In this document: positions 13,595-30,350 of the stretch, one piece after another
Layout of the letters: the number at the start of each line of letters is the position of its first letter
Position numbering within the stretch: position 1 is the first letter of the stretch
Source: Minicystis rosea
GTDB lineage: Bacteria > Myxococcota_A > Polyangia > Polyangiales > Polyangiaceae
Direction: 5' to 3'
Length of the DNA: 32,000 nucleotides
NCBI GenBank assembly: GCA_001931535.1
Contig: CP016211.1
Coordinates: 6,835,703 to 6,867,702 of the forward strand
The notes under the pieces: model-generated
Databases searched by the model: none
Told to the model about the DNA's origin: nothing
The model's input: the letters and a program-made list of their open reading frames with translations, nothing else
Position numbers and translations under genes: made by a program

Positions 13595-13671
13595 ATGGAG
13601 CTCGTCCCTCTCGCTCGCCCCTCCGATCCTTCGTTCGAATCAGGCTCGAGGACGATGTCGAGGTCGCGCGC

Positions 13672-13699: not shown

Positions 13700-13727
13700 A
13701 CGCGCGCCCCTTCACCCCGGGCTTTCC

Positions 13728-14071
<344 letters not shown>

Positions 14072-14185
14072 TGAATTTCCCGACGATCCCCGTTCCTTCC
14101 TTCTCGTTTGTGCCGTGATCCGTTGTGATGCGCGCCGTGCCCCCGTGGCGCGGCAACCGCGCTCACGCGTGCGCATCCGGCCGCG

Positions 14186-14713: not shown

Positions 14714-14883
14714 GAGCGCTCGAAGGTCGCATCCGCTGGATGGATGTCAATCCCGCGCTCGGGCTCCGGCGCGCGTCCATCATCGCGCGCGCCGATATAG
14801 CAACTCCACCCTCATCGTCGACACGAGCCCATACGCAACTCTACGCATGGTGCCCGGAGCCGGCACATCGGTATCGTGATCGG

Positions 14884-15306
14884 ATGGGGTGGCGACGCGC
14901 TTGGTACGACGCGAACCGGAGCAGTTATCGTTCCTTCCATCTCGGTGAGACGCTCGCACCGCTGCTCGGTGGCTGTCTCGTGATCGCATTGGCCTTTGGC
15001 GGCTGCGGGATGTGCGTTTGCGCCAGCGCGATGCACAGCACGGCCGAGCGCCTCGGCGAAAACGAAGCCCCTCGCCACGAGCCTGCGACGCCCCCTCGGC
15101 GAGCAGCGACGCCTGCTCCAGCACCTGCCCCCGAACCGCCGCTGTCGAAGTCGCCATCCACCGCGCCCGCACAGGCAGCCCCGAGCTTCGGCACGTGCGC
15201 CGACGGGACGCCGGCACGATGCTCAGGTCGCGGGTGCTGCTCACACCACGGCGGGACGGGAAGCGGACATCACCGCAGCCATGGTGGCGGGCATCGAAAG
15301 AAGTAG
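14884..15306 (+). CDS. small membrane-anchored Pro-rich protein with a DUF3761-like Cys/His/Gly C-terminus
   Basis: ATG 14884 lies within track ORF 14740..15306. One hydrophobic helix (LAPLLGGCLVIALAFGGCGMCVCA), a Pro/Ala linker, then CADGTPARCSGRGCCSHHGGTGSGHHRSHGGGHRKK. This resembles the C.DG..S.S...G.CSHHGG signature I associate with DUF3761. Confidence 0.5.
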   Translation: MGWRRAWYDANRSSYRSFHLGETLAPLLGGCLVIALAFGGCGMCVCASAMHSTAERLGENEAPRHEPATPPRRAATPAPAPAPEPPLSKSPSTAPAQAAPSFGTCADGTPARCSGRGCCSHHGGTGSGHHRSHGGGHRKK

Positions 15307-15353
15307 ACGGCTTCCTCGAACACGCTCGAGCTCGTGGGAGCTCCATCACACCT

Positions 15354-15896
15354 TCAGCGGCGCTTTGGAGTGGGACGCTGCTGGGGCTGTGGACGAGGCG
15401 TTGCTTCCTGCGCAGGCGACGCCGCAGCCGACGTCGGCGCCCCGCCCACGAGCTCGCAGTCGTCGAGCAACACATTCATCATGAGCCCCGATACGCGCCC
15501 TTGGAATGTTGCGCGCGTGCCTTTGTCGAGGCTTGCGGCTTTTGCCTCCTGACCGCGGGCGAGGCTGCACTGCACCTCCGGAATCTCGAAGGCTGCGCCC
15601 GTGCCCAAGGTGACGAAGGGCTTGTCGAGGATGTCTTTCTTGATGTGGCCGACGAGGCCCGTCACCTTGACGAGCTTGCCCTTCCACTTCGCGTCACCGC
15701 GGACTTCGTTGCCCTTGTAGTCCGCCATCAACGTTGCGGCGTCGACGGCAATGGCCTGCTCCGATGACGCGGGTGTGCTCCCGGGCGCGGAGCCTCCTTC
15801 CTGTCGTTTCGAGCCATTTCCGCAGGCGAGCGATGCCGCGAGAAGAAGCCCCATGTACGCGAGTGGTTCGAGGCGGCGAACGATGGCGAGGTTCAT
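15354..15896 (-). CDS. lipoprotein with OB-fold (tRNA_anti-like) domain
   Basis: Track ORF 15354..15917 opens on a TTG. ATG 15896 gives MNLAIVRRLEPLAYMGLLLAASLAC with lipobox L-A-C. ADYKGNEVRGDAKWKGKLVKVTGLVGHI is typical of the OB-fold putative-lipoprotein family. Confidence 0.75.
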   Translation of the reverse strand: MNLAIVRRLEPLAYMGLLLAASLACGNGSKRQEGGSAPGSTPASSEQAIAVDAATLMADYKGNEVRGDAKWKGKLVKVTGLVGHIKKDILDKPFVTLGTGAAFEIPEVQCSLARGQEAKAASLDKGTRATFQGRVSGLMMNVLLDDCELVGGAPTSAAASPAQEATPRPQPQQRPTPKRR

Positions 15897-15969
15897 TCTG
15901 CCGACGCTACAAGCCAAGCACGCGATGCGCCCTCCGCAAGACTACGTAGGGCACCCACCGTCTTCGGAG

Positions 15970-17469
15970 CTACCTTGGGCCGCGCACGTGGAACACGAGG
16001 TGCTCGGACAGCCATCCTCCTTTCCACTTTCCCAACACCGTACGACGGCCCTGCTCCAGCGCGTCGGCGTCGGGCATGAGCCCCGCGGTGTGTGTCGGCT
16101 CGACGGCCCGGCCGCCTCGACCCGCGGGCGGGCCGACGTGGACGAGGAGCTGTTCGAGCCCGCCCACCTCGTCGAGCTCGATCTCGACGGGCCATGGCTC
16201 CGAGGCTTTCAGCTCTCGCTCCTGGGTAATCGTGGCAAACGAGGGTGCGTGTCCCGGCCGGTGGGTGACCATCACGACGGTGAGCGTCCCTGCGCATCTC
16301 GCGGTGATCTCGACGCGAATCCGATCGCCGTGAGCAGCCGTGAGCATGGAGCCCGGCCCGACGGGGATCCATTCGCCGTCATCAAAGCCGAGGAGCGTCG
16401 AAGTCGCCGGGGGCCAAATCGCCGTGAGCCCTCCGCTGACGGATCGCACCAGCCAGCTATTTTTCAGCAGCTTGACGTTGTCGGCGACCGTGCGTTTATC
16501 GCTCCGCCCCAGGATGGTTTTGACGTCGTCGAGCGCGACGGGCCCCGGCAACGCGTCGAGGAACCGAGAAGCGAGCTCCAAAGACACCTCGCGAGATGCC
16601 ACCGCCTTGGGACGAGCGCCGGGCGTGGTGAGCTGACGGAGCAGCTCCGCAAAACGCTCCCGCTCGGTCAGTGATGGGCTGACCGCGGGCCCAAAGGGCG
16701 TGAGGCGGCCCGCGCCATCAGCGCTCTTTCGACGCGCCCAATCCTCGGTGATGCTTCGCTCCGCCTCGTCGATCCCAAGCACGCTCTGCTGCAAGAAATT
16801 CCATATCTCCCGCGCGTTCCCCGGCCACGCCAGCGGGTGTCGCGAGAGGCGCTCCACCGCGGCGAGCGCCTCCCCCTTGAACGGCTCCTCGAGCCCCAGC
16901 GCCTCCGCCTGCGCGGCGGCGATCCGCCGCGCCTCTGCTGGGCTCTCCCGCAACGACGGCAGCGTGATTCGAAAGACGTTGATGCGATGATAGAGGTCCT
17001 CCCGGAAGAGGCCTTGATTGCACATCTCGCGCAAATCGCGGTTGGTCGCCGCGACGAGCCGAAAGTTGGCTTTGTGCTCTTCGGTGCTGCCCACGCGGCG
17101 ATAGACGCGCTCTTCGAGCAACGTGAGCAGCTTGGCTTGAACGGCGAGCGGGAGCTCTCCGATCTCGTCGAGGAACAGCGTCCCTCCCTCCGCCTTCTCG
17201 ACGATGCCGCGCGCGTCTTGCACCGCCGTGGTGAACGCGCCCTTCACGTGCCCGAACAGCATGCTGTCCGCAAGCTCGCTCGGAATCGCAGCGCAGTTCT
17301 GGGCGACGAAAGGGCGCTTCGCGCGCGCGCTCTCAGCGTGGATCCGCGCGGCTATCCGCGTCTTGCCCGTACCGGGCGCGCCGGTGATGAGGACATCTCC
17401 ATCCGCTTTGGCCACCTTCTCGATCCGCGCCTCGAGCGCGGGATCAAGAATGAGCTCGGTCGATCGCAC
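15970..17469 (-). CDS. sigma-54 activator (bEBP)-type AAA+ protein with variant GAFTTA loop, no receiver domain and a non-canonical C-terminus
   Basis: Track ORF 15970..17592. Start placed at GTG 17469, preceded by GGAGGAG. Walker A ITGAPGTGKT, Walker B GGTLFLDEIGE, FREDLYHRINV. The GAFTGA position reads GAFTTA (17224..17241). The C-terminal ~230 aa have a wHTH-like stretch (VALDDVKTILGRSDKRTVADNVKLLKNSWLV) and a beta-rich region instead of a Fis-type HTH. Confidence 0.85.
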   Translation of the reverse strand: MRSTELILDPALEARIEKVAKADGDVLITGAPGTGKTRIAARIHAESARAKRPFVAQNCAAIPSELADSMLFGHVKGAFTTAVQDARGIVEKAEGGTLFLDEIGELPLAVQAKLLTLLEERVYRRVGSTEEHKANFRLVAATNRDLREMCNQGLFREDLYHRINVFRITLPSLRESPAEARRIAAAQAEALGLEEPFKGEALAAVERLSRHPLAWPGNAREIWNFLQQSVLGIDEAERSITEDWARRKSADGAGRLTPFGPAVSPSLTERERFAELLRQLTTPGARPKAVASREVSLELASRFLDALPGPVALDDVKTILGRSDKRTVADNVKLLKNSWLVRSVSGGLTAIWPPATSTLLGFDDGEWIPVGPGSMLTAAHGDRIRVEITARCAGTLTVVMVTHRPGHAPSFATITQERELKASEPWPVEIELDEVGGLEQLLVHVGPPAGRGGRAVEPTHTAGLMPDADALEQGRRTVLGKWKGGWLSEHLVFHVRGPR

Positions 17470-17716: not shown

Positions 17717-18358
17717 ATGCACGATCTCGTCATCAATCTGGATCGGGAGGTCAACCGGCTCGTCGACGTGCTCGACGAGCACCCCGTCGCGCGGACGCTC
17801 TTCGATGGGACCATCACGGCCGGTCACTATGCGCGCTACCTCGAACAGACGGAGTATTACGTCGGCGTCTCCGACGAGCTGCTCCGCGGCTCCGGCGAGC
17901 GGCTCCTCGCGACGCGCCGGCATCGGCCGCTCGCTCGGCTCCTTTTGCAGAAGTCCAAAGAGGAGAAGGGCCACGATCAGTGGGCGCGGGACGATCGCCG
18001 TGCGATCGGGTTCGGGGCGGCGGGCGTGGGGCCGGGGATCGCCGTGCGAGCGTACATCTACACGCATCGCTTCGAGATGGAGACGGGCTCGGGCGCGGCG
18101 TTCCTCGGCACGGCGTACGTGCTCGAAGCGCTCTCGGCGCGGCGCGCGCCCATCGCGGTGCAAAACCTCCTCGCCAAGAGCCGTATCCCCGGCATCGAAG
18201 GCGCGATTCGCTTTCTCAAAGGGCACGGCGAGGCCGATCAGGATCACATCCGAGAGCTCGCAACCAAGCTGCGCTCGTTCACCGATCCGGAGGACACCGA
18301 GGCCATCCTCCGCTCGGCGAAGAACACCGCACGCTTCTTCCCGGAGTTCTTCTCGTGA
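17717..18358 (+). CDS. heme-oxygenase-like fold protein (possible HO-like di-iron oxidase / iron-containing redox enzyme family)
   Basis: ATG 17717 lies within track ORF 17510..18358, with GGGAGA upstream. All-helical sequence with HYARYLEQTEYYV, EEKGHDQWARDD, AYVLEALS, FLKGHGEADQDHI (E..H-type ligand pairs). Confidence 0.6.
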   Translation: MHDLVINLDREVNRLVDVLDEHPVARTLFDGTITAGHYARYLEQTEYYVGVSDELLRGSGERLLATRRHRPLARLLLQKSKEEKGHDQWARDDRRAIGFGAAGVGPGIAVRAYIYTHRFEMETGSGAAFLGTAYVLEALSARRAPIAVQNLLAKSRIPGIEGAIRFLKGHGEADQDHIRELATKLRSFTDPEDTEAILRSAKNTARFFPEFFS

Positions 18359-19140
18359 GCCCCCGCATTCATGCCTCCGTCGTCGAGGGCCCCGCGGCCA
18401 TCGCCGAGTGCCAGCGCGTTCGACATCAGGTGTACGTCGTGGAGAAAGGGCTCTTGAGCCACGACACCACGGCGCTCGATCGGGAGGAGGACGAGTACGA
18501 CGCTCTCGACACCACCGTTCACCTCCTCGCCCGCGTGGACGGCGAGGCGGTCGCGACGGTGCGCCTGCTCCGCCCGAACCCGCATGTCGCAGGAGCATTC
18601 GGGCAAGCGATCGGCATCGGGCTCGCGGCGCGCTACGACCTCGCGTCGCTCGCGGTGCCGGGCATCTCACTCGCGGAGGGCTCGCGCCTGTGCGTGCTCC
18701 CCAAGCACCGCGGCGGCGCCGTCTTCGGCGCGCTCTCTGCCGAGATGATCCGTGCGGGCCTACGCCTCGGGCTCACGCACCTCGTCATCGCGGCCAACAC
18801 CGAGACCGACTCCATCGAGGACGCGGAGATCGCGTATCGGGTCGCCGTGCGCGACGGGTTCGCGAGCGCTCGCTTCCGGGTCGTCCCGAGGCGCGGGGCC
18901 AGCGCATCCGGGCCGTCGCACCGCGGGATCTACACGGCAGAGGAGCGGGCACGGGCGCGCGCAGGAGACCTCACAGGCCTGCAGCTCCCTCGGATGCTGC
19001 GGACGTTCGCGGAGCACCTCGCGGCGCGGTACATGGGGCCACCCATCCGCGAGAAGGGCTATACGGTCTGCTCGTTGCCCGCCGTGATCGATCTCGAAGA
19101 GGCCTTCCGTACCCAGGCATTCCGCCGCGCGATCATGTGA
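18355..19140 (+). CDS. GNAT-fold N-acyl amino acid synthase / LuxI-like acyltransferase
   Basis: This is the tail of track ORF 16837..19140. GTG 18355 overlaps the previous stop as GTGA. CQRVRHQVYVVEKGLL...REEDEYDALDTTVHLLARVDGEAVATVRLL and EGSRLCVLPKHRG match my recollection of the exosortase-associated N-acyl amino acid synthase / FeeM-type family. Confidence 0.7.
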   Translation: MSPRIHASVVEGPAAIAECQRVRHQVYVVEKGLLSHDTTALDREEDEYDALDTTVHLLARVDGEAVATVRLLRPNPHVAGAFGQAIGIGLAARYDLASLAVPGISLAEGSRLCVLPKHRGGAVFGALSAEMIRAGLRLGLTHLVIAANTETDSIEDAEIAYRVAVRDGFASARFRVVPRRGASASGPSHRGIYTAEERARARAGDLTGLQLPRMLRTFAEHLAARYMGPPIREKGYTVCSLPAVIDLEEAFRTQAFRRAIM

Positions 19141-19181
19141 GCAACGGATTCGCGTCGAGCATCCGGCGTTCGTCCCGTGAT

Positions 19182-20276
19182 ATGTTGCGACATATGAGCG
19201 ATGGTGTGGGGCTCATTCGCAACGAAGAACGCCGGATGATGGCGATCTCCGAGGGGCTGAGCTCCTCGTTCGATGTGGAGATCGCGCTGCGCCGCGGCTT
19301 CGAGGGGATCCTGAAGCTCGTCGGTGCGGACTACGGCGCGGTGGCTCTGGCGGGGCCGGAGCGCGGCGCGCCGCTCCGTTGGCCAACCCCATTGCAAGTG
19401 GATCTTCCGCCCATCTTCCTCAGTACGTACCAGGAGATGAGCGAGCATGATTTCTTGCGCGACGCGGCGATCAAACAGCCCAACATCGTGCTGCGCGATC
19501 ACCAGATGATCCACCGGCGCGGGTTCCAACAGAACCCGTTCGTCATCCGCGCGCGCGAGATCGGCGCGCCGATCGAGCAGGTGATGTCGCTCCTGATCGT
19601 CGTCGAAGGCGTCGGCCTCTGCGGGCTGGCGCTGTACCGCGATCGACAGCGCCCGTTCTCCGCGGACGCACAGCGCATGTTGCAACGGCTCACGCCGACG
19701 CTCAAGAACACCGTCGAGAGATGCTGGCAGTACGGCGAGCTCAGCCGGCAGCGATCGTTAATCGAGACAGTCCTCAAAAAGCGGCACCACGCGATCGTCA
19801 TCGTGCCGCCGTCCAATAGAGAGATCGAGCTCACCCCGGCGGCGACCGAGCTGCTCGACGCGTGGTTCGAACCCGTGGAGCGTCGCGGTGGCGCCCTGCC
19901 TCAACCCCTCCTCGACGCGCTGAAGAAGGCGATGGCCACCGAGGAAAAAGGCCTACCGCCAAAGCCTTGGACGGTGAAGGGGAAGACCGCAGATCTCAAG
20001 GTGAGGTTCTCCCGACACTCGGAGTTGCGCGGCAACCCGTCGTGGGCAATCGAGCTCCAGGAGGAGCTTCACCTCCCTGCATCCTGGCGTGAGCGCCTCA
20101 CGGATCGACAAGCTCAAGTGGCGGAGAAGTTGGTCCTCGGGTGGGAGAGCCGCCTCATCGCCGAAGAGCTGGGGTGCCGCACGCGCACGGTAGAGACGCA
20201 CGTCCAAAGCATCCTCGACGCGCTCGGCATGCCCGATCGCCGAGCGCTCATGCTCCACGCAAAAGACACGGATTGA
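19182..20276 (+). CDS. LuxR-family transcriptional regulator (GAF-like N-terminal domain plus C-terminal GerE/LuxR HTH)
   Basis: This is the tail of track ORF 17805..20276. Start at ATG 19182 or 19194. C-terminal LTDRQAQVAEKLVLGWESRLIAEELGCRTRTVETHVQSILDALGM is a LuxR-type HTH. The N-terminus has GAF-like features: GILKLVGADYGAVAL..., GLCGLALYRD. Confidence 0.85.
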   Translation: MLRHMSDGVGLIRNEERRMMAISEGLSSSFDVEIALRRGFEGILKLVGADYGAVALAGPERGAPLRWPTPLQVDLPPIFLSTYQEMSEHDFLRDAAIKQPNIVLRDHQMIHRRGFQQNPFVIRAREIGAPIEQVMSLLIVVEGVGLCGLALYRDRQRPFSADAQRMLQRLTPTLKNTVERCWQYGELSRQRSLIETVLKKRHHAIVIVPPSNREIELTPAATELLDAWFEPVERRGGALPQPLLDALKKAMATEEKGLPPKPWTVKGKTADLKVRFSRHSELRGNPSWAIELQEELHLPASWRERLTDRQAQVAEKLVLGWESRLIAEELGCRTRTVETHVQSILDALGMPDRRALMLHAKDTD

Positions 20277-20308: not shown

Positions 20309-21541
20309 CTACGCAGTTTGGCCGCCCCGCATCGTGATGACGTGAATGCCCTTGGAGGGCACGTTGAGGTGGCGCGCGAGGCTCGGGATCGGGCTCGCGT
20401 CGTCGTCGCTCGCGAGCAGCACGGCCTTCGCCTTGCCGATGACGGCTTGCTTCACCAGCGGCCAGCCGGCGCCGTGGGAGGTGCCGTTCGTGGCCGCGAA
20501 GATCGGTAAGAGCATGCCGTTCTCGAGCAGTTGCTGCAGCGCCAAGGGATTGAAGCGCACGTGATGGAACCGAAAGGCTTCGGCGACCAGATCCTTCAGA
20601 TCCACCGAGGGATGCTCCGGGAGCGGGAGCACGATCGGCGCCGGAGCGTCGGGCTTGTGCCTGAAATCCTCGGAGCAAGCGTGGGCGATGCGCTTCCGTG
20701 CGTGCCAAACCGCGCGCTGGCTCCAGGCGCGAAGGGAGAGCACGCGGACGTCGCGGTCCGAGAGCGTGCCGCGCAGGATCTCCTCCAGCGGATCGTCGCT
20801 CATGTCGTCGTCGGAGAGATCCTGCGGATCGGGCTCGGCGAGGATCCAGGCTTGTTGCCGGAGCACGAAGCTCTCGAGCTCCGGCGTGCCCATGGGTGGA
20901 AGATCGGTGTACCCCATCGGCCGGAGGTTGGCCTCCCGCACCTTCGCCTCATCGGCTCTGCGCTTCTCCGGTGTCATCGAGGTGAGCACGACGTAGCCCT
21001 CGGCGAACGGCTCGTTCGGCCGCATCTCCAGGAGCCGCTGGGTCACGGCGTCGATGGCTTCTTCGACGGTGTCGTCGGCGACCGCGACCACGTGGATGAT
21101 GCCCACGCCGCGAAAGGCGAGGAACGTGCGGGATCGCTCCCCCTCCGGCGGATCGACGTCATACCCATGTGACACGAAAAACCGCTTCGCGCGCCGCATG
21201 TACACGTCGTGGGGCGACCGCGACGCGCGCCGCGTTCGCTCGTCGGCCTCGCCGAGGGCCTCCGCGAACACGTCGGCCTCCCTGCGATCACCGCAGAGAA
21301 ACTCGGCGTTCTTGAGGAAGGCGCGGAGCGGCGGCTCTTCACCGCCCCGTGGCTGCCACGTGCTCAGCGTGTTGAAGACGACCAGGAGGTGACTCCTCGG
21401 CGCGGAGCGTGATGATGGCGACGGCAGCGCGGAGCGCACGTTCGACGGGAGCACTTCGACGAGCGCCTCCACGTCGAGCGCGCACGCGCAGGCCGCCGTC
21501 ACCAAGCGGTGGATGGTCGCCTCCGAGAGAAACAACGCCAC
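20309..21541 (-). CDS. adaptor (EAD-like) N-terminal domain protein with uncharacterised middle and C-terminal regions
   Basis: Track ORF 20309..21541. GTG start preceded by GGAGG, 19 nt after the ATPase stop. The first ~100 aa are alignable with the CHAT protein N-terminus. No Walker A and no recognisable catalytic motif in the remainder. Confidence 0.8.
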   Translation of the reverse strand: MALFLSEATIHRLVTAACACALDVEALVEVLPSNVRSALPSPSSRSAPRSHLLVVFNTLSTWQPRGGEEPPLRAFLKNAEFLCGDRREADVFAEALGEADERTRRASRSPHDVYMRRAKRFFVSHGYDVDPPEGERSRTFLAFRGVGIIHVVAVADDTVEEAIDAVTQRLLEMRPNEPFAEGYVVLTSMTPEKRRADEAKVREANLRPMGYTDLPPMGTPELESFVLRQQAWILAEPDPQDLSDDDMSDDPLEEILRGTLSDRDVRVLSLRAWSQRAVWHARKRIAHACSEDFRHKPDAPAPIVLPLPEHPSVDLKDLVAEAFRFHHVRFNPLALQQLLENGMLLPIFAATNGTSHGAGWPLVKQAVIGKAKAVLLASDDDASPIPSLARHLNVPSKGIHVITMRGGQTA

Positions 21542-21560
21542 GGCGCACCTCCGTCGGCGA

Positions 21561-24500
21561 TCAGGGACGACCTGCGCTCTCGCGGATCCTCCGCGCGAGC
21601 AGGAGCAGATCGGCGTCCGGGATCTGCTCCGTCGCGAGCACGCTGCGCAGGGTCCTCACGTGGCTCACGTTCCCCGCGCGGACGAGGTGGAACTCTCCCG
21701 TCTCTTGCCCGGGCAGCCGCGAGAGCACGTCGATCGGGCTCTCGCTGACCATGGGCTTGAGCTTGGCGAGCGCCGTCTGCTCTTTCACGCGGCCGAGGAA
21801 CCACGTGCGAATCGTGTCGCGGCAGCGGTAGTCGAGATCGCCGGGGCTCTGCGTCGCGAGCATCACCCCGAGCCCTGCCGAGCGGCCGCGCTTCAGCAAG
21901 CTCTCCATGGGGGCTTTGGTGGCGGGCTGGCGCTGCGCGGGGAGGTAGAGATCCGCCTCGTCGAAGAGGATCGCCGCCTGAAGCTCATTTCGTGGGCGCT
22001 TGCCCGCCCACCGCAGGATCGCGAGGAGGAGCTGCGCGACCCAGAACTGGATCTGCGCGTCGTCGCGGAGGAACTTGGTGCTGATGACCGAGAGCCGCGC
22101 GCGCCCCGGCCGCGCGTGCGCGCCCTTGCCGAGGAACAGATCGATGTCGAGCGGCTCGCTGCCCGCGCCGAAGAGCCGAGAGCCCGTGACCTTCAGCGTC
22201 TCCAGGCCCTGCACGATTTGGGCGAAGAGCTTGATGTCGAGTCTCCCGACCGCCGCCACGAGCTCCTGATCCTGGTCCCCGATGAAGTCGATCAGCGTGT
22301 CGAGCCCGATGTGCGAGATCGTCTGCGAGAGCACGCGAAGCGCCTGCATGAGGATGGCGCGCTTCGTCGCGTCGCCCCCCGTCTGCTTGTAGTTGAGCAT
22401 GTCCCCGAGCGCGTGCGCGGCGAGATCGGCGGCCTCCTCGCGCTCGAACTGCGGCAGCTCCGCGAGCCCTTCGGGCACCACCGAGATCGAGATCGGCCGG
22501 CCCTCCGGGTGGCCCGGCGTGAAGAGCGCGACATCCACGTTCGACAAGAGCCGCTTGCGACGCTCGTCGAGCGCGGCGTCGGCGATGGGCCGTTGCAACA
22601 CCTCCTGCCGCGCGTAGCCCGCGAGATCGCCCTTGCGATCCACCATGATGACGGGCACGCCGCTCACGAGGAGCTGCTCGATCACGCTCAGCGCGACCGT
22701 CGTCTTGCCGCTCCCCGAACCGCCGAGGAACGCTGCATGACAGGTGAGCTCCGCGGGCGTGATGTGCACCGGCTTCGGCGCCACGCCCGCCGTCGTGCCG
22801 ACGAGCGCGCCCGCGACGTCGCTCGAGGGCGTGCTCGGCGTCGTGGTGGCCTTCGGCGTGGTGGGCGCGCGCGGCTCGCTGACGCGGGCCGCGGGGACGG
22901 TGGACGCGGGCGTGCCGAGCCGCTCCACGTGATCGAGATCGAGGATGTCGCGGATCGAGCCGAGGCGCGACATGTGGTTCTCGTCCGCGCGCCACTCGTG
23001 GAAGAACGGCTCGCGATCGTGAAGCTCGGTGAAGCGCTGGAGCGCGAGCATCGCCCGCCACTCCGCGTCCTGGATGATCACGCGGCGCCCGCCGCCCTTG
23101 AGCGCGAGGGCGATCTGCTGGGTGACGGACTTGGCCGCCGAGAACTCGTCGTTGCGCGTGAGCACGAGGATGGGCTGGTTCGCGTCGTCGCGCGCCGCCT
23201 TGGTGTGCTGGGAGATCTGCCGCGCGAGCCAGCCGAAGTTCGCTTGTCTGTTGCAGAGCGCCACATAAAGGTGCTCGCTTCGACGCCGCTCCGGGCCCCA
23301 CGCGGTGACGTGCACGGCGCCGTCGCCTTCGCTCGTGTCGAAGCGGTGCCCACTCTCCAGCTCCTCGCCTGCGCGGACGATCGCCCAGGCGAGCAGCGGG
23401 ACGAGCTCGGCCTCCTCTTCCGACGGCGAGGACGTGCTCGCAGCGAGGAAGTCGTTCCATCGCTGCTCCCATTGCTCCACCGCCTTGAAGCGCGCGGTCG
23501 ACTCGACGGGCGGGGGCTCCGCGATCGTCGAGGGGCGGGCGTCGACGAGCGCGCCGGCCTTCTTGCAGCGCTGCCGGTACTCGCGGCAGCCCTCGATGAG
23601 ATCGCGCGTGCGAAGCTGCGCGCGGGCCTCGATGATCGAGGGAGGGAACGGGTAGAGCGGGTCCCGCTCGTCGAGCTCGGCGCCGGCGCTCGCGTAGAGG
23701 CAGCGCAGCCGCTCGACGACGATGCTGCGCGCCTCGTCGGCCGTGCGCTGGGCCCGCAATTGGATCGGATCCGGATCGTGCTCGATGCGGTCGAGGAGCG
23801 AGCGGTGCAGCGTGCCCTTGAGCTGCCTGTACGCGTCCTCCAAGCAGCTCAGCACGACGATGATGGACGGGATCTCCGCGAGGTCGCCCAGCGTGGTCAT
23901 CGCGTGACGGAACGGCGCGCTGATCGCTTCGAGATCGTAGAGGCCTTCGAGCTGATCGATGCACAGCACGAGCGCCATCGGCGACTCGGGGACGGCGGCG
24001 AGGAGCTTGCCGAGCTGTTGGATCATCCACGCTGGGTGCTCGTCGTGGGTCTTCGGCATGATGCCGCCGATGCGCTTGCGATCCGTCTCGGCGATGTCCT
24101 CGCAGCGGAGGAACTTGAAGATGCGGCTCTTGATCCGCGGATCGGGCCGGTGGAGGAAGAGCAACGCGCGCAGGAGATCGATGTCCGCGTTTCGATAAGC
24201 CCCTTCGAGGAGCCGATCCACGCCGGTGTTGACGAGATCGGCGACCTCGTCGTCGTCGAGCTCGGCGTCATCCCGGAGCATCGCCGCGAGCTTCGGCTCG
24301 AAGGCGCGCGACGCGAGCAGCGCCGCGATCCGCACGAGCCCGGTGCGCATGTCCACGGGCTCGTCGTACGGTTGATCGAGCGAATCGATGAGGTTACTGA
24401 GCACGTAGCGCGCGTAGTTGTTCGCCGCCGACGTGAGCTGCATGTACCCCACGAAACCCACGCGATTCTTGTGCACGTGGCTGCGGAACGCGCGGAGCAA

Positions 24501-24731
24501 ATGCGTCTTACCGGCGCCCGAGTCGCCGAGCAGCAGTAAGATTCGCCCGGAGGTCGCCTCGAAGGGCGTCGTCGCCCGAACGACCAAGCGCTCGAACTCC
24601 TGCCGTGCCTCCGCGTGCACCGAGGGCACGTCGAACGGATCTTCCTTCCAGATCTCGTGTCGATGCTCGACCGAATGGAAGACCTCGGTCGGATCCGTGA
24701 GAAATACGCGTAGGCGCTCGTCCTTCGACAT
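21561..24731 (-). CDS. 1056-aa fusion of two P-loop ATPase modules: N-terminal DnaA/ORC-like-Walker-A NTPase plus C-terminal YjgR/DUF853 HerA-FtsK-type ATPase
   Basis: Track ORF 21561..24731. ATG preceded by GGGGAGGCGGAGAC. Module 1: Walker A LLLGDSGAGKTHLL (24504..24527), Walker B-like ALVLCIDQLE. Module 2: AFLGGSGSGKTTVALSVIEQLLVSGVPVIMVDRKGDLAGYA (Walker A 22698..22724), Walker B AAILFDEADLY (21945..21974), and LATQSPGDLD. A Pro/Thr/Ser linker separates the modules. Confidence 0.85.
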   Translation of the reverse strand: MSKDERLRVFLTDPTEVFHSVEHRHEIWKEDPFDVPSVHAEARQEFERLVVRATTPFEATSGRILLLLGDSGAGKTHLLRAFRSHVHKNRVGFVGYMQLTSAANNYARYVLSNLIDSLDQPYDEPVDMRTGLVRIAALLASRAFEPKLAAMLRDDAELDDDEVADLVNTGVDRLLEGAYRNADIDLLRALLFLHRPDPRIKSRIFKFLRCEDIAETDRKRIGGIMPKTHDEHPAWMIQQLGKLLAAVPESPMALVLCIDQLEGLYDLEAISAPFRHAMTTLGDLAEIPSIIVVLSCLEDAYRQLKGTLHRSLLDRIEHDPDPIQLRAQRTADEARSIVVERLRCLYASAGAELDERDPLYPFPPSIIEARAQLRTRDLIEGCREYRQRCKKAGALVDARPSTIAEPPPVESTARFKAVEQWEQRWNDFLAASTSSPSEEEAELVPLLAWAIVRAGEELESGHRFDTSEGDGAVHVTAWGPERRRSEHLYVALCNRQANFGWLARQISQHTKAARDDANQPILVLTRNDEFSAAKSVTQQIALALKGGGRRVIIQDAEWRAMLALQRFTELHDREPFFHEWRADENHMSRLGSIRDILDLDHVERLGTPASTVPAARVSEPRAPTTPKATTTPSTPSSDVAGALVGTTAGVAPKPVHITPAELTCHAAFLGGSGSGKTTVALSVIEQLLVSGVPVIMVDRKGDLAGYARQEVLQRPIADAALDERRKRLLSNVDVALFTPGHPEGRPISISVVPEGLAELPQFEREEAADLAAHALGDMLNYKQTGGDATKRAILMQALRVLSQTISHIGLDTLIDFIGDQDQELVAAVGRLDIKLFAQIVQGLETLKVTGSRLFGAGSEPLDIDLFLGKGAHARPGRARLSVISTKFLRDDAQIQFWVAQLLLAILRWAGKRPRNELQAAILFDEADLYLPAQRQPATKAPMESLLKRGRSAGLGVMLATQSPGDLDYRCRDTIRTWFLGRVKEQTALAKLKPMVSESPIDVLSRLPGQETGEFHLVRAGNVSHVRTLRSVLATEQIPDADLLLLARRIRESAGRP

Positions 24732-24749
24732 GTCTCCGCCTCCCCTTTT

Positions 24750-25688
24750 TCAGCGATCGTCGAGCCGCACGAAGTGGAACGATGCATTCAGATACGATGT
24801 CTCCGACGCCGCCACGTCTTCACGCGGCATCGCCTGGACGAGGTCCGCGCGGCTCAGCTCGATGAGCTGACGTTGACTCGCCTCGATGAGCCTCCCTTGG
24901 AAGTCCGGAAACGTCATCGCGCCGACGGCGCCTTGACGCTGGAGCTCGTTCCACACGTGCGAGATGAAAACCTTGTTGTCGTGCCACCGCCCGGTCGGCG
25001 ACGCCTGCGCCGCCTTGCGCACGCGCTCCGCGAATCCGGGGAGGCCGTTCTCCGCTTTGAGCACGGGAGTGACTACGGGGACCTCGATGTTCTGGGCCGT
25101 GGCACGCGGCGCCGCGGCGGGCGCATCGCGGAGCAGGAGGCGTTCGGTGAGCGTAGTGAGCGAGAACGTCTCATTCTCCGTCAGTCCCACCATTCTCCGT
25201 GCAAGCGCGATGACGATGTCGGACGGCGAGGGGTCCTTGTCTTTGAACGAGAGCTGGTGGTGCGCGATGATGATCGCTTTGGCGAGCCACGCACCGGCCC
25301 CCGCCTTCTCGATGGTGCCAACCGTGAGCGGGAGCTTCAACTCGCGCAATACGAGGAGCTTCTTCGCCCACTTCCAATCGGTCTTGGTGCGCTTGGGCAG
25401 CTCGGTGACGTCCAACACCGCGAGCGCGCGACGGCGCCCTTCTGCGGTCAGCATCAAGCGGGTGTCCCGCTCGATCAGACCACCTGCCTTGAGCCGCGCG
25501 AGCGCGTCGTTCGCGACCTTCTTCGGATCCTCCGCGGAGGCGTCGAGGAGTGGCTCGAGAGCCTTCGCTAATTCTCCCGTGCTCTGCTTCTTCCGCGGCA
25601 GCACGAGCCACGCGAGCACCACCTTGTCCACAGAGCTCATCTTGAGATCATCCACGTCTTTCTCCTCGTCGGATTCGCGTCCGAGCAC
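24750..25688 (-). CDS. hypothetical protein with N-terminal winged-helix-like region
   Basis: Track ORF 24750..25688. Start at GTG 25688, or ATG 25640. It ends 18 nt before the ATPase start. KVVLAWLVLPRKKQSTGELAKALEPLL...ALARLKAGGLIERD looks wHTH-like. The conserved-looking C-terminus (NKVFISHVWNEL...LIELSRADLVQAM...FHFVRL) matches no family I recognise. Confidence 0.7.
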   Translation of the reverse strand: MLGRESDEEKDVDDLKMSSVDKVVLAWLVLPRKKQSTGELAKALEPLLDASAEDPKKVANDALARLKAGGLIERDTRLMLTAEGRRRALAVLDVTELPKRTKTDWKWAKKLLVLRELKLPLTVGTIEKAGAGAWLAKAIIIAHHQLSFKDKDPSPSDIVIALARRMVGLTENETFSLTTLTERLLLRDAPAAAPRATAQNIEVPVVTPVLKAENGLPGFAERVRKAAQASPTGRWHDNKVFISHVWNELQRQGAVGAMTFPDFQGRLIEASQRQLIELSRADLVQAMPREDVAASETSYLNASFHFVRLDDR

Positions 25689-25726
25689 GGCGTCTCGTCA
25701 CTCCGAGCACGCGAGCTTATCCAAGA

Positions 25727-26671
25727 TCACGCCCGCAAATCATGTACCGTCCGAATCAGGTGGGTTGACGCGGCGTCGACGCCGGGGCGCGTCCAGAGCC
25801 GCGGATTGTCCTGCTCCCCGAGCCCGAGCGCGTCGATCACCGCGCGCGCTTGCTCGAATGCGCTCTCGACCGATCGCCCCGCGCTGATGGATCCGTAGAA
25901 CGCTGCGGCGAGCTGGGTCTCGGCCTTCTCTTCGACGGCCCCCAGCATCCCAATCGCGAAATCGACCGTCGCGACCGCATGCTCCGCGAGCGGCGCGGAG
26001 TGACACCCACCGAAGAAGACCAGGCGGAGATCGTCGCCCGCAGCGCGCAGGAGTGCCTGCATCGCCGAAGGGCGCACGGTCACGGAGCGCTCGTCCTCCC
26101 ATTCGAAGAGCATTCCCCTCCGCGACCCGTGCGCATGAATGTGCATGAGGTGTGGGCGATGCTGGTTGAGGTGCGGGACCAGATCCGTTGGACGCACCGC
26201 CCAGCCGCTCGCGAGATGAATCTGGTCCTTGCCGCCGGCCTTTGCGATCGCCTCTTCGATCGCGCGATACGCTCTGCCAGGGTTGAGCGTGGTTTCGCTC
26301 TCCGGTTGCGCGCTGAGGAACAACAGCCGGAGCGGCGAGGCACCATCTTTATCTCTGGAGGCTCGCGAAGGCCCAAGACGTCTGAGCATGTCGTCGAAGA
26401 GAGCAGCACCGCGACGTCCAGCAGCGAGATGGGCTGCGTTCTCCAGCAGCACGCGGAGAGGCACCGTGCCGTCACGGAGCTGCCCATCCTGACTGAGCCG
26501 GCTGAGCACGCGGAGGAGGCGAATGGCCGGAACGCCACCGACAGGCAACGTGGTCACGTATCCGGGCGAGAGCCCTTCGAGGAGCGCGTCCAGCCCCGCG
26601 TCCCCTGCGAGACCGTCATCGACGACGGCCCGATGCAATGCGCGAAGATCGTCCTGATCGAGCAGCGGCAT
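25727..26671 (-). CDS. adaptor (EAD-like) N-terminal domain fused to a CHAT (caspase-fold) protease domain
   Basis: Track ORF 25727..26701. The GTG at 26701 overlaps the caspase stop as GTGA. I prefer ATG 26671, which is preceded by GGAGGA at 7 nt. CHAT dyad context: PHLMHIHAHGS (His) and LRLVFFGGCHSAP (Cys), then QLAAAFYGSISAGRSV. Confidence 0.82.
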   Translation of the reverse strand: MPLLDQDDLRALHRAVVDDGLAGDAGLDALLEGLSPGYVTTLPVGGVPAIRLLRVLSRLSQDGQLRDGTVPLRVLLENAAHLAAGRRGAALFDDMLRRLGPSRASRDKDGASPLRLLFLSAQPESETTLNPGRAYRAIEEAIAKAGGKDQIHLASGWAVRPTDLVPHLNQHRPHLMHIHAHGSRRGMLFEWEDERSVTVRPSAMQALLRAAGDDLRLVFFGGCHSAPLAEHAVATVDFAIGMLGAVEEKAETQLAAAFYGSISAGRSVESAFEQARAVIDALGLGEQDNPRLWTRPGVDAASTHLIRTVHDLRA

Positions 26672-26697
26672 GGTCGCATCCTCCGAGCGTCGCGAGC

Positions 26698-27543
26698 TCA
26701 CCGCGGAAAGAGCGGCAGCGCCGCGAGGTTCGATCGCCCGTTCAAGATGGGGCGCTGCTGGCCCTCGGTCGCCTCGCTCACCGCGCGAGCCACGCGCTCG
26801 TACAAGGCGCCCACACCGATCGTCGCCGGTCCCCCCGAGGGCGGCTGCAGCGCTTCGAGCAGGTGATACGTGAAGAGGCCGTGGCCGAGCGCCTCACTCT
26901 CCCGCGCCACCTGAGCCTCATCCGCTGCCGTGAGGATTACGCTGCCTCGCCCAAGGTCCAACCCACGTAAGGATACGCGCGGAGGCGGCCCATCGCCCAT
27001 GAGCCGGCGCGCAAAGGTCCGTCCCCCGGTCGCACCGCTGAAACAAGTATCGAGGATCACCGCGACGAAGCTCGCCTCTTCGAGGCGCACCATCCAGTCG
27101 GAGAGCCGCAGCTCCAAATCGAGGCCCGTCGCGTGGATGTAAGCATACTCGGTATCATGGAGCGCGAGGAACGCCGAGAGCGAGGCGGTCGCGCTCCGAC
27201 GCTCCGGCGTCCCGTGTGATGCGATGTAGATCAGCACCACGTCTTCATCGCTCACATTCCGACAGAGATCGTCGACCCGCTTCTCGACGTTGCGCAAGGT
27301 CGCCTCGCGGTCGAAGAGCGTATGTATGGAGCGCTCCTCCGGCGCGATGCGTTCGAAGAGCTGCGCCATCGCCGCTGCGTCCTTCCGGGCATAGCGGAGC
27401 CTCCGTATCGACGGGTCCTGAAAATCATCAATGCCTATCGAGAGCGCGTGCAGCACCATCCACCTGCTTTGATTCTCTCGTCGATGGACGAGAGCCCCGA
27501 ACGCAAAGGTCGCGAGCGTAACGGTTCGCGCGGAGGAAAGCAC
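26698..27543 (-). CDS. caspase-family (peptidase C14, metacaspase-like) protease, stand-alone domain
   Basis: Track ORF 26698..27543. Start at GTG 27543, or ATG 27459. HALSIGIDDF. Catalytic His in VVLIYIASHG (27214..27216) and catalytic Cys in AVILDTCFSG (27043..27045, checked on the DNA). GHGLFTYHLLEAL follows. Confidence 0.88.
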   Translation of the reverse strand: MLSSARTVTLATFAFGALVHRRENQSRWMVLHALSIGIDDFQDPSIRRLRYARKDAAAMAQLFERIAPEERSIHTLFDREATLRNVEKRVDDLCRNVSDEDVVLIYIASHGTPERRSATASLSAFLALHDTEYAYIHATGLDLELRLSDWMVRLEEASFVAVILDTCFSGATGGRTFARRLMGDGPPPRVSLRGLDLGRGSVILTAADEAQVARESEALGHGLFTYHLLEALQPPSGGPATIGVGALYERVARAVSEATEGQQRPILNGRSNLAALPLFPR

Positions 27544-27758: not shown

Positions 27759-30350
27759 TCACGACAGCAAATCGCTCGCCGAGAGCGTCGGCGTCATCTG
27801 CTCGCGGAACAGCGCATACGCCGCGCTCCCCGCAGGCAGCACCGCGTCCCCGCGATACAACAGCGCCAGCGACGGCGGCCCATCGGCGCGCGGCGGACGC
27901 GCGCGTGGCTCATCCGCCTCGCCGCGCACGAGCCGGCCGTGGAAGGCGGCCACGTCCTCGTCAGGGCGCCGCACGAACAGCTTCACGTGCTCCGCGTCGC
28001 CGCGCAGGTACACCCGCTGGCAGCGCGCGGCCGCATGGAGCAAACCGAGATCGAGGAGCGACGGCCGCACGCCGCTCTCGAAATATCCCATCATCGCCGG
28101 GCAGATTTTGGTGATCGCCGCGTTCGACGAGGCCACGTTGTTGAGCTGGAGCTGCCCTTTGCTCTGCACGTCGAGCCAGTGCAGCACGCCTTCGCGCACG
28201 TCGAGCACGAGCGGCAGGAACACACCGTTGTCGCCCTGCAAAGCGAACTTCAACGCCACCGTGCGCGGGTCGAAGTGTTGCCCCTCGGTGTCGTCGCGCA
28301 GCATCAGGCCTGCGAAGCCCCGCTCCAGCGCGGCGAACGGCATCCCCGAGTAGTTGTTCACCACCATCACCGCGTAGCGGATCCCCTCCGCGAGCGCGCG
28401 ATCGCGGTGCAGATCGACGAGCTCCGTCGCGCCGTCGGGCCAAGGGGCATCCCGCAAGTCGCCGGCGCTGGTCGCGAGATCGCGACCGTCCTTCCCGACG
28501 GTGCGGAGGTGGTAGTACGAGCACACGCCCACGTGGTTCCAGGCGTCGTCGTAGAAGCCGACGGAGAGATCCAAGTCCGTCTCGTGCCCGCCCTCTTCCG
28601 GCTGGCACCAATGCAAGAACAGCCGCAGCACCTTGCCGGTCGGCACTTGCACGCGCGAACCGCGCGGCAGCGTGACCGCGGAGGGGCTCGCCGTTCGTTC
28701 GTTGAAGGGCGCGACGATGGTCGCAAGCGTTTCGTCGACGATCGCCTCGGCAAACGCCGGCCTCTCGGCGAAGCGCCTGAGGAGCTCGGCCTCGATGGCC
28801 GCGACCGCAAGCTCGATCGCACGCGCCGGAAGAGGCGCACGCTCGTCCTTCGCTGACGGGCCCATCGCCATTTGGCCCTTGGGCCAGTAGACGCGCACCG
28901 CGGCCGGCGCGCGACGCGCCGGCAGCAGGTTCCGCAGCAGCGCGAGCACCGGCGTGGCGAACGCCGGCACGTGCTTCACGAAGGCCGCGATCACGACATC
29001 GACGGCTGCCTCGTCATGGCCCGCGATCCGCAACGCATGATCGAAACGCCGCGCCAGCTCGCCCGGCCTCTCCGCCAGGATCGCCGCCATCGCGCGGCCA
29101 TCCTGCGCGCGCACGGCCGCTTCGAGCTTCGCGGACCAGCCCTGAAAATGCGGCGCAGGCGTCCCATCCGGCGCCTTGCCGCGCACGATCGCGAACGCGC
29201 GGGCCACGTTGGGAAAGCGCGCCGCATGCTCGTGCGGATGCATCAGCTCCCCCACCCACACCCACGTCGAGCGGTGGCGAAGCATGTCCTCGACGAGCCG
29301 ATCCGGCGCGATCCCCTCGAGCAGCGCGAGGAGCGCGCGACGAAGCGGCCGCCCGAGGCGCGCCACCTTGAAGCGGTGCACCTGGAGCGACAGCGACACC
29401 CGCTTCGTCGTCCGGAGCTGCTCCGCGATCTTGCCCGAGAATCGGCGCGCATCCGCCTCGCCCGAGAAAGTCTTCAGAACGGCTGCGGCCTGAAGCGATC
29501 CATCGGCGCCCGACATCACGGCGATGAGGCGCAGCACATCCGTGGCCGTCGTCAGGTGGCGCCGCGCCGCCGGGAGCACGTCGTCCGGCGCGCAGCGCGT
29601 GAGCAGCGTGCCGAAGATCAGGGCCGTGTTCTCCCGCACCGGGATCGACTCCGGCACCCAGCGCAGCACGTTGCCGCGAAGCTCCTCGACGATCGCGACG
29701 AGCGCCGCCCGATCGTCGGGCGAGATCGCTTGCCGGCGCTCGCACAAGCTCGTGAACAGCGCGCGCGCCGCTTCGTGAAAGTCTCCGCCGTCATCGAGGA
29801 GCTGAAAGCGCACCTGCTCCTTGGGCACGCCGCGATCACGCGCCGGCTGAAAGAACGGCGACGACCGATCGACGTGGTGCTCGCAAACCGGGCACGCCGC
29901 GTAGCTCGCCCCATCGAAGCAGCGATCGCAGACCACGTGCTGGCACGGCCGGAGCACGTGCGTCGTCCCCGTGCGACAGCAGAACAAGCACGGCTGCCCT
30001 TCCGCCTGGAGAAAGTGCACGAGGAGCCGCTCCCACCGCAGCGCCGTCGTGTCATCCGGCACGCCCTCGGGAAAGCTCCGAAACAGCGGCTCGTGCTTTT
30101 GATCCGCGCCGCGATGTGCCGCGAGCACCGCGAGCGCCCACGCACGAAATGCCGTCAGCTCATCGAGCGACGTCCGCGTGAAGCGCGCGCGTAGCCGCGA
30201 CGAGATCACGTAGCCGAGCGCCGCGAGCTCGATCTCGCACGCACCGATCGTCGCCTCGGAGAGCAGTGGCCCTTCCGATGCGACGAAGACCGCGCCACGG
30301 CGAAGGAGGAGCAGCTCGCGAATCGTGGTGCGCTCGTCGGCGGTGGGCAT
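27759..30350 (-). CDS. bacterial C3HC4 RING-finger protein with C-terminal TerD-like domain
   Basis: Track ORF 27759..30350 with an ATG start. RING: C121-x2-C124-x11-C136-x-H138-x2-C141-x2-C144-x8-C153-x2-C156 (29883..29990). TerD-like: LRLFLHWCQPEEGGHETDLDLSVGFYDD...SAGDLRDAPWPDGATELVDL...YAVMVVNNYSG. I recall an NCBI family named after MXAN_6230/SCO0854 RING domain proteins; this needs checking. Confidence 0.85.
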   Translation of the reverse strand: MPTADERTTIRELLLLRRGAVFVASEGPLLSEATIGACEIELAALGYVISSRLRARFTRTSLDELTAFRAWALAVLAAHRGADQKHEPLFRSFPEGVPDDTTALRWERLLVHFLQAEGQPCLFCCRTGTTHVLRPCQHVVCDRCFDGASYAACPVCEHHVDRSSPFFQPARDRGVPKEQVRFQLLDDGGDFHEAARALFTSLCERRQAISPDDRAALVAIVEELRGNVLRWVPESIPVRENTALIFGTLLTRCAPDDVLPAARRHLTTATDVLRLIAVMSGADGSLQAAAVLKTFSGEADARRFSGKIAEQLRTTKRVSLSLQVHRFKVARLGRPLRRALLALLEGIAPDRLVEDMLRHRSTWVWVGELMHPHEHAARFPNVARAFAIVRGKAPDGTPAPHFQGWSAKLEAAVRAQDGRAMAAILAERPGELARRFDHALRIAGHDEAAVDVVIAAFVKHVPAFATPVLALLRNLLPARRAPAAVRVYWPKGQMAMGPSAKDERAPLPARAIELAVAAIEAELLRRFAERPAFAEAIVDETLATIVAPFNERTASPSAVTLPRGSRVQVPTGKVLRLFLHWCQPEEGGHETDLDLSVGFYDDAWNHVGVCSYYHLRTVGKDGRDLATSAGDLRDAPWPDGATELVDLHRDRALAEGIRYAVMVVNNYSGMPFAALERGFAGLMLRDDTEGQHFDPRTVALKFALQGDNGVFLPLVLDVREGVLHWLDVQSKGQLQLNNVASSNAAITKICPAMMGYFESGVRPSLLDLGLLHAAARCQRVYLRGDAEHVKLFVRRPDEDVAAFHGRLVRGEADEPRARPPRADGPPSLALLYRGDAVLPAGSAAYALFREQMTPTLSASDLLS

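Follow-up and report, generated by a model that had tools for sequence, protein, structure and literature searches.

A gene cassette of Minicystis rosea with a winged-helix and double-ATPase core and an adaptor-tagged protease: a candidate variant of an anti-invader module

A stretch of 32,000 nucleotides from the genome of the myxobacterium Minicystis rosea, called here the window, has a G+C content of about 68-70% and contains a cassette of five open reading frames (ORFs), all co-directional on the minus strand. The encoded proteins are a standalone caspase-fold protease, a second protease composed of an EAD5 adaptor domain and a CHAT domain, a winged helix-turn-helix (wHTH) protein named gene B, a double ATPase of 1056 residues and a 410-residue protein named p410 (Table 1). 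The junctions are short. The stop codon of the caspase gene and a GTG of the CHAT gene share the letters GTGA, and an alternative ATG, with GGAGGA ahead of it, is located 26 nucleotides beyond the caspase stop. The remaining gaps are 38, 18 and 19 nucleotides long, and GGAG-like motifs precede the starts. In its maximal form the caspase ORF comprises 26698-27543 and the CHAT ORF 25727-26701. Orthologs of the caspase, however, begin with MLHAL, corresponding to Met29 (at about 27459), and orthologs of the CHAT protein begin with MPLL, corresponding to the ATG at 26671 and not to the GTG at 26701. Because the ortholog alignments begin there, Met29 and the ATG at 26671 are the likelier true starts. 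The base composition at the codon positions is coding-like in all five genes, with a G+C content of 0.76-0.91 at the third position (GC3) and 0.43-0.50 at the second (GC2). Scans of the cassette for internal terminators and promoters were uninformative and gave no convincing candidate (5 terminator-like matches versus 3.0 expected). A preliminary description of this DNA had proposed a single operon of five co-directional minus-strand genes, and the ORFs and junctions are as it described them.

Table 1. Genes of the cassette, with the approximate extents of their domains (window coordinates)
Feature	Coordinates	Strand	Domains and basis
Standalone caspase-fold protease (Peptidase_C14), without adaptor domain	26698..27459	-	Pfam
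EAD5-CHAT protease	25727..26671	-	EAD5 about 26387-26662; CHAT caspase-fold domain about 25790-26344
Gene B, multi-winged-helix DNA-binding-type protein, 312 aa	24750..25688	-	no Pfam family
1056-aa double ATPase	21561..24731	-	AAA+ about 23712-24599; middle about 22782-23579; HerA/FtsK about 21654-22775
p410, 410 aa	20309..21541	-	EAD5 about 21221-21541; alpha/beta core 20312-21220

The double ATPase is 100% identical to Minicystis rosea A7982_05928. Its N-terminal module matches the Pfam families AAA_22 and AAA_16 at about 1e-9; the full set of matches, which are weak to moderate, comprises AAA_22, AAA_16, nSTAND1, NACHT, DnaA, Hda and IstB. Judged from these profiles, the module belongs to the Orc/Cdc6-STAND assemblage of AAA+ proteins and is placed at that broad level. 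The C-terminal module matches HerA_C (formerly DUF853) at 1.4e-10 and DUF87 at 3e-6. Its relatives in the PDB are HerA (8wiv, 7.5e-9; also 8xau) and YjgR (5e-7). In PADLOC, the protein matches the mad8 and HerA models, and the Avs2 model aligns to the P-loop only (E = 0.028). Among 8000 candidates scored, 703 homologs were found at E<=1e-10, and nearly all of the best 120 listed are full-length. Both Walker A and both Walker B motifs, GSGKTT and FDEAD among them, are invariant in 20 homologs that share 47-79% identity. The two modules are separated by a conserved middle domain of ~265 residues in which Trp425, Cys493, Arg526 and Trp580 are invariant. A Pfam scan of this domain in 32 members at E<=1 produced scattered chance matches only, a profile search of the PDB produced none, and hhalign found no relationship to gene B, p410 or gene A, a nuclease gene of related loci that is described below.

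The profile of gene B matches the DtxR/IdeR wHTH domain at 1.6e-3. An AlphaFold2 model (pLDDT 86) has meaningful fold matches that are all wHTH proteins of the MarR, PadR, DtxR or F-93 type. The wHTH label stands because the profile match and all the fold matches agree, and the model suggests that gene B is probably a wHTH protein with more than one wHTH unit. The C-terminal ~100 residues are the best conserved part of the protein. The family is unnamed and comprises 2016 representative clusters (E<=1e-10) among 1.84 billion proteins.

The first protease matches Pfam Peptidase_C14 at 4.3e-13 and the PADLOC caspase model at 9e-11. Against the NCBIfam model 'caspase, EACC1-associated type' it scores 86.8 bits (1.3e-24), which is under the 140-bit cutoff. 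Its catalytic dyad, His110 and Cys167, is invariant among relatives, and orthologs occupy the same position in three other loci (L081, L082 and L086). The second protease matches Pfam EAD5 at 3.8e-17, Pfam CHAT at 5.4e-8 and the PADLOC SAVED_CHAT model at 6.7e-5. The dyad of its CHAT domain, His191 and Cys233, is likewise invariant. The single relative in the PDB is 8tl0, a CHAT protein of 496 residues (3.5e-8), which we take to be SAVED-CHAT; the N-terminal module of the window protein, however, is EAD5 and not SAVED. The preliminary description had assigned the caspase, CHAT, wHTH and dual P-loop HerA-type ATPase and had noted intact catalytic and Walker residues. These assignments are upheld by the Pfam and PDB profiles, by the wHTH profile and predicted fold of gene B, and by the invariance of the residues among relatives.

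The protein encoded by the last gene of the cassette shares a domain with the CHAT protease. The Pfam EAD5 match of p410 is weak in the window copy (0.007) and clear in its orthologs. The N-terminal 107 residues are 35% identical to the EAD5 of the CHAT protein (E = 3e-7 in a pairwise comparison), and a p410 profile matches the same domain at 9e-8 and recovers the N-termini of the CHAT proteins of the window and of L081, L082 and L004. The two proteins were thus correctly expected to share an adaptor module. They had also been interpreted as an adaptor-only protein and as a protease recruited by the ATPase through that adaptor. The former does not hold, as EAD5 is followed in p410 by a conserved alpha/beta core of ~300 residues. 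The latter holds as far as the sharing is concerned, but the ATPase carries no EAD5, which resides on the separate p410, and direct recruitment of CHAT by the ATPase via the shared adaptor is therefore impossible.

The AlphaFold2 model of p410 (pLDDT 74) weakly resembles P-loop NTPases of the STAND/ORC/TnsC/MuB kind. The top Foldseek matches are Avs4, ORC, TnsC, NLRP9, Apaf-1, CED-4 and MuB, with E values of 2e-3 to 0.1. A Walker A motif is missing from the family, in which the conserved strand-loop-helix reads AGNRRAVWH and not GxxGxGK[ST]. Tentatively, p410 may be an inactive-STAND-like scaffold with an N-terminal EAD, an architecture that is known from the iSTAND components of Kaur et al. 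A hidden Markov model of the p410 core has matches in 11 loci only, each time directly downstream of the ATPase gene. The size of the family is a lower bound, because the word-index homolog search returned just 8 proteins. The possibility that the core is a diverged homolog of gene A or of the AAA+ module of the ATPase was also considered and rejected, since hhalign gave no signal (probabilities of 0.05-0.6%).

A scan of one genome per species, 185,579 species genomes in all, yielded 246 loci with a full-length relative of the ATPase, of which the best 80 were examined. These 80 come from Myxococcota, Planctomycetota, Cyanobacteria, Beta- and Gammaproteobacteria, Desulfobacterales and Verrucomicrobia. 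In each of the 75 loci with upstream sequence, tblastn places gene B directly ahead of the ATPase, at a distance of 10-160 nucleotides in nearly all of them and 417 nucleotides in one. Gene B and the ATPase are the invariant core, which spans at least five phyla. The other members of the cassette are rare among the examined loci: the caspase is found in none, CHAT in one and p410 in five or six; a RING protein encoded next to the window cassette is also found in none. The five genes are thus not the evolutionary unit, since universal linkage is limited to gene B and the ATPase. The co-occurrence of all five, which had been anticipated, holds for four other sources in which they are syntenic, but it does not hold for the family, where only gene B and the ATPase are linked in 75/75 loci.

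ORF calling and clustering revealed a third conserved gene, gene A, which is upstream of gene B and encodes about 411 residues. Its C-terminus matches the DUF559/REase_MTES_1575 endonuclease domain at 1.7e-12 to 3e-7, and the acidic and basic residues of the motifs E..D...E.DG..H..RRDRRKD are conserved. A six-frame profile search located gene A in 53 of the 65 loci for which 2.6 kb or more of upstream sequence is available. The DUF559/Vsr-like endonuclease is apparently active, and the DUF559 protein is the ancestral or majority partner of gene B and the ATPase. Gene A is split or frameshifted in L007, L029, L042, L047 and L058 and reduced to remnants in L027, L038 and L048, while gene B and the ATPase are intact in these loci. 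The fragmentation could be an assembly error or a genuine decay of the nuclease.

The majority architecture is similar to the Orc/CDC6-HerA/FtsK 'capture systems', a computational prediction by Rakesh, Aravind and Krishnan (Nucleic Acids Research 2024; PMC10853773). Capture systems combine an Orc/CDC6 AAA+ domain, an inserted inactive restriction endonuclease (REase), an active REase, a HerA/FtsK ATPase and a wHTH in varied polypeptide arrangements, and some of them add a fast-evolving multi-wHTH protein (PMC10853773). The present family likewise has an AAA+ module of the Orc/Cdc6-STAND assemblage together with a HerA/FtsK module, a separate multi-wHTH protein (gene B) and, in most members, an apparently active REase-fold effector (gene A). 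It is also sporadic and self-contained. Compared by description, the gene A-gene B-ATPase architecture fits well. Unlike capture systems, the window cassette has no nuclease, and its outputs would be caspase-fold proteases connected via EAD5. A caspase, CHAT or EAD link is not mentioned in the main text of PMC10853773.

In a neighbor-joining tree of the ATPases, the p410 loci form one clade, which belongs to the Polyangia. The sister clade, from Sorangium and Chondromyces, has a STAND-WD40 protein and an EAD1-trypsin protease in the place of p410, and gene A is missing from both clades. Replacement of the nuclease by p410 is thus restricted to one clade. The order caspase, EAD5-CHAT, gene B, ATPase, p410 is found in five sources, namely the window and four further metagenomic sources, whose ATPases are 76-88% identical to that of the window. 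The caspase and CHAT genes are confined to the closest relatives. In L083 and L084, where the ATPase is 63-64% identical, a small neighboring protein forms an EAD5-EAD1 bridge, the EAD1 of which (the C-terminal 90 residues) matches the EAD1 of an adjacent trypsin-like protease at 1e-10 and 2e-10. L002 and L006 encode a direct fusion of the p410 core to a caspase and to bDLD3 (bacterial Death-like domain 3), and the L002 fusion has no EAD5 part of the p410 profile. The effectors of close relatives thus comprise caspase and CHAT, trypsin, a caspase-bDLD3 fusion, and STAND-WD40 with EAD1-trypsin. The EAD5 match, the EAD5-EAD1 bridge and the bDLD3 fusion argue that one scaffold is wired to various proteases by differing adaptors.

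Several of these loci have further features. In L083, a CBASS-like operon (CBASS, cyclic-oligonucleotide-based antiphage signaling system) at 1720-6803 on the minus strand, transcribed divergently to the gene B-ATPase-p410 operon, encodes a SMODS cyclase, a bacterial HORMA protein and a Trip13-like AAA protein. The SAVED-EAD1-trypsin effector of this operon adjoins the EAD5-EAD1 bridge protein. This protease may receive input from a cyclic nucleotide and, by the adaptor chain, from the ATPase system. In L009, L012, L020 and L021, from Sorangium, Chondromyces and a metagenome-assembled genome (MAG) of the Polyangiaceae, a NACHT-like STAND-WD40 protein of ~1250 residues is encoded downstream of the ATPase, and neither gene A nor p410 was found in these four loci. 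The STAND-WD40 gene is followed by an EAD1-Trypsin_2 protease gene in L009, L012 and L020, with the Pfam check covering the L020 copy only. Chondromyces apiculatus has two paralogous systems, one with STAND-WD40 and trypsin (L020) and one with the DUF559 nuclease (L022). The MAG ABC1.6 also has two, one with p410 (L004) and one with STAND-WD40 (L021). Directly after the p410-caspase-bDLD3 gene of L006, positions 13139-16981 (plus strand) encode a protein of 1280 residues that combines, unusually, repeats of the RNA polymerase alpha C-terminal domain with a sigma-70 region 4 domain. This protein is possibly a transcription-linked target or effector.

The attachment of proteases by a shared adaptor resembles the EAD-coupled, NTP-dependent conflict systems of Kaur, Burroughs, Iyer and Aravind (eLife 2020/2021; PMC7159879, PMC8195603). 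As in those systems, the same EAD5 is found on a core-linked protein, p410, and on an adjacent effector, the CHAT protease. Furthermore, there is a third component with an N-terminal EAD that is tentatively inactive-STAND-like, the hosts are bacteria of the multicellular type, and caspase, trypsin and bDLD3 effectors are swapped between close relatives. The core is different. Unlike the MoxR-vWA ternary, DO-GTPase-GAP1, NucA-peptidase, EACC1-caspase and STAND cores, it consists of a wHTH protein and an AAA+/HerA ATPase, and the ancestral effector is a nuclease. Thus the 'EAD principle' (PMC7159879) is attached here to a core that is not described in that paper.

A precedent for the protease pair exists in the type III-B CRISPR/CBASS system of Haliangium ochraceum, in which SAVED-CHAT oligomerizes and then cleaves and activates PCaspase, with an abortive phenotype as the outcome (Steens et al., bioRxiv 10.1101/2023.06.23.546230). 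The window cassette also encodes, in a myxobacterium, a CHAT protein together with a separate adaptor-less caspase, and its CHAT protein also has an N-terminal regulatory or oligomerization module. That module is EAD5 instead of SAVED, however, the cassette has no cyclase or Cas10, and the proposed trigger is a protein assembly, not a cyclic nucleotide. The pairing of a HerA-type ATPase with an effector is reminiscent of the Sir2-HerA and DUF4297-HerA systems, in line with the matches to the PADLOC HerA models and to PDB entries 8wiv and 8xau. In the cassette, by contrast, HerA forms one polypeptide with a second AAA+ NTPase, the wHTH partner is obligatory and the effectors are different; no Sir2 or DUF4297 domain was found in the cassette or its flanks. 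Single-protein Avs/STAND sensors differ in uniting an effector, an active STAND NTPase and a repeat sensor in a single chain; repeat sensor domains are absent here, as are a Walker A motif in p410 and any Avs2 match beyond the P-loop.

The cassette corresponds to no named system of PADLOC v2 or NCBIfam, and its PADLOC matches are limited to the generic caspase, SAVED_CHAT, HerA and mad8 models. No gasdermin was detected by Pfam or PADLOC in any cassette or flanking protein; in bacterial gasdermin systems, unlike here, a gasdermin gene stands beside the proteases. The cassette contains no Sir2, TIR or nuclease gene and no Pfam match to MoxR, vWA, GTPase or EACC1, and the window contains no cyclase or Cas10. 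The preliminary description was correct in reporting that gasdermin, nuclease, Sir2 and TIR partners are absent and that no named defense system corresponds. The parts themselves are less novel than that description implied, because a closely similar core had already been predicted (PMC10853773) and a CHAT-to-caspase cascade had been shown in another myxobacterium (bioRxiv 10.1101/2023.06.23.546230).

With modest confidence, the cassette is regarded as a lineage-specific variant of a widespread, self-contained anti-invader module in which output by CHAT and the caspase is connected through the EAD5 of p410. The module as such is probably an anti-invader system. In the majority lineages, gene B and the ATPase would bind and pump invader DNA, which the DUF559 nuclease would cut. 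In the window cassette, gene B and the ATPase would engage foreign or aberrant DNA and undergo an ATP-dependent assembly or conformational change. p410 would then enter the assembly, so that its EAD5 domains become clustered. Homotypic EAD5-EAD5 binding would bring in the EAD5-CHAT protease, which would be activated by induced proximity. The adaptor-less caspase would be cleaved and activated by CHAT, as PCaspase is by SAVED-CHAT, and would degrade cellular targets, leading to growth arrest or death of the cell (abortive infection). We infer the steps of DNA sensing, p410 docking, CHAT recruitment, caspase cleavage and suicidal output.

This proposed sequence of events has an analog in the apoptosome (Apaf-1/CED-4, CARD-caspase-9, caspase-3), where a scaffold of P-loop fold with a homotypic adaptor, a tagged initiator protease and a second protease without adaptor are also found. 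The likeness is an analogy and homology is not claimed. Unlike the apoptosome scaffold, p410 has no Walker A motif, a different protein carries the active NTPases, and EAD5 is predicted to be an alpha+beta domain and not a Death fold. A more far-reaching interpretation, which is tentative and on the whole doubtful, is that the cassette is an apoptosome-like device. The wHTH protein and the Orc/Cdc6-HerA ATPase would sense invader DNA and nucleate p410 as an inactive STAND-like scaffold, the EAD5 of p410 would recruit the initiator CHAT and CHAT would activate the executioner caspase, the output having been switched from restriction to suicide. In the same interpretation, the adaptor chains of the sister lineages (EAD5, EAD5-EAD1 and bDLD3) would link the sensor to other proteases, including one linked to CBASS.

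The composition of the genes bears on whether the cassette is one system. GC3 is 0.76-0.78 in the caspase and CHAT genes versus 0.83-0.91 in those of gene B, the ATPase and p410, a hint that the two protease genes are the more recent acquisition. The difference would also be consistent with two independent systems, in which gene B, the ATPase and p410 work alone and the caspase and EAD5-CHAT have an EAD5 partner elsewhere. EAD domains are able to pair with copies elsewhere in the genome (PMC7159879), and the caspase and CHAT are absent from most p410 loci. The only other EAD5 in the window, however, is that of p410, in the same operon with junctions of 18-38 nucleotides. Moreover, the five-gene order is repeated in five sources, and sister loci join other proteases to the same p410 by the EAD5-EAD1 bridge or by fusion. 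Two separate systems are therefore considered improbable.

A single system might also be wired in reverse, with the proteases as upstream sensors or regulators, responding to an invader cue or processing p410 or the ATPase, and with the ATPase as the effector, a pump or remodeler that clears or blocks invader DNA. Such an arrangement would fit the retention of both ATPase active sites in the clade, which lost the nuclease. In L083, the adaptor chain is joined to a SAVED protease beside a CBASS cyclase, and signals may thus enter the protease from elsewhere. Nevertheless, the element that is swapped in the majority architecture is the nuclease, an output, and both CHAT and PCaspase are outputs in the experimental precedent. 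Kaur et al. place EAD5 among the EADs that mainly recruit effectors and not signaling parts. Reverse wiring seems hardly likely.

The surroundings of the cassette are housekeeping-like. A RING gene at 27759-30350 (minus strand) is upstream of the cassette, 215 nucleotides away, and encodes 863 residues with a Prok-RING_4 match at 1e-15. The protein is a full-length member (3e-272) of NF041916, the 'MXAN_6230/SCO0854 family RING domain-containing protein', which is conserved in myxobacteria and actinomycetes. The gene was considered as a member of the cassette and rejected, because it belongs to a family of its own, is separated by the 215-nucleotide gap and is absent from the orthologous cassettes. 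A transfer-messenger RNA (tmRNA) gene, ssrA, with the tag peptide ANDNALALAA is located at 13728-14071 (plus strand), at a distance of about 6 kb. That the cassette is on an island inserted at this gene was also considered and rejected, as the window contains neither an integrase nor a repeat of the 3' end of ssrA. Positions 17805-20276 (plus strand) contain an ORF of 823 residues with a C-terminal LuxR/GerE helix-turn-helix (5e-9) and a weak GAF match. Its codon-position G+C is flat (0.69/0.63/0.69) in a stretch of lower G+C (about 0.65), and the gene model is uncertain.

Such surroundings would suit a module that monitors the cell's own DNA (segregation, damage or replication ends) and, in this clade, triggers regulated death or proteolytic signaling, for example in developmental autolysis of social or multicellular bacteria. 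The family is found chiefly in Myxococcota, filamentous cyanobacteria, Isosphaeraceae and Nitrosomonas. Its flanks are mostly housekeeping or regulatory genes, such as sigma-54 activators, kinases and, in the window, the tmRNA gene. There are no matches in the defense databases, and HerA/FtsK and Orc/Cdc6 ATPases have cellular relatives that handle DNA (PMC10853773). Because the census of flanks gives no recurrent context and those of the window are housekeeping-like, a role in cellular DNA surveillance or regulated death stays live, although it is judged unlikely. The distribution is sporadic (246 loci among the 185,579 species genomes), and some genomes have paralogs with different effectors. 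Effectors are exchanged rapidly between nuclease, caspase, CHAT and trypsin, several loci have a fragmented gene A, and some loci adjoin CBASS or restriction-modification (R-M) genes. Sporadic occurrence, paralogs with varied effectors, effector exchange and gene A fragmentation are hallmarks of a conflict system rather than of housekeeping. The sporadic distribution, the paralogs, the quick effector turnover and the occasional defense neighbors are indirect evidence for a role in defense.

The reading of the cassette as a variant of an anti-invader module has to be weighed against several observations. L001, L003 and L085 have p410 and no EAD5 effector within the DNA examined. The STAND-like fold of p410 was proposed from weak Foldseek scores (E>=2e-3, template modeling score of about 0.3) and a model of medium confidence, and profile comparison of p410 with gene A and with the ATPase revealed no relationship. 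Docking of p410 to the ATPase is putative. The place in the cascade of the caspase, which has no adaptor, is argued by likeness alone, and the function of the family is predicted from sequences and models. Gene A, gene B and p410 have zero matches to PADLOC or NCBIfam defense models. The housekeeping-like flanks of the window contain no integrase or att repeat, and the defense neighbors are anecdotal (CBASS in L083 and a type I R-M system in L085). In a census of the flanks of 60 loci, the 118 proteins, which cover 208 Pfam families, included no recurrent defense genes, a result that supports neither side.

The proposed link of a DNA-translocase-type sensor to an adaptor-coupled pair of caspase-fold proteases is unreported. 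The known activators of bacterial caspase and CHAT proteases form a short list of cyclic nucleotides, type III-E CRISPR, TIR signals and gasdermin partners, which would be joined by a trigger based on a DNA translocase if the proposed reading is true. Natural variants of the module would then show an immune sensor that keeps its detection while its output is replaced, from a nuclease to adaptor-tagged proteases, and homotypic adaptor domains would be what makes the swap possible. The paired architectures (nuclease, caspase and CHAT, trypsin, and fusion) provide a tractable set for the study of protease activation by induced proximity. Gene B represents a sizeable unnamed family of about 2000 representative clusters with no Pfam model, and would become a candidate for defense-finding programs once validated.

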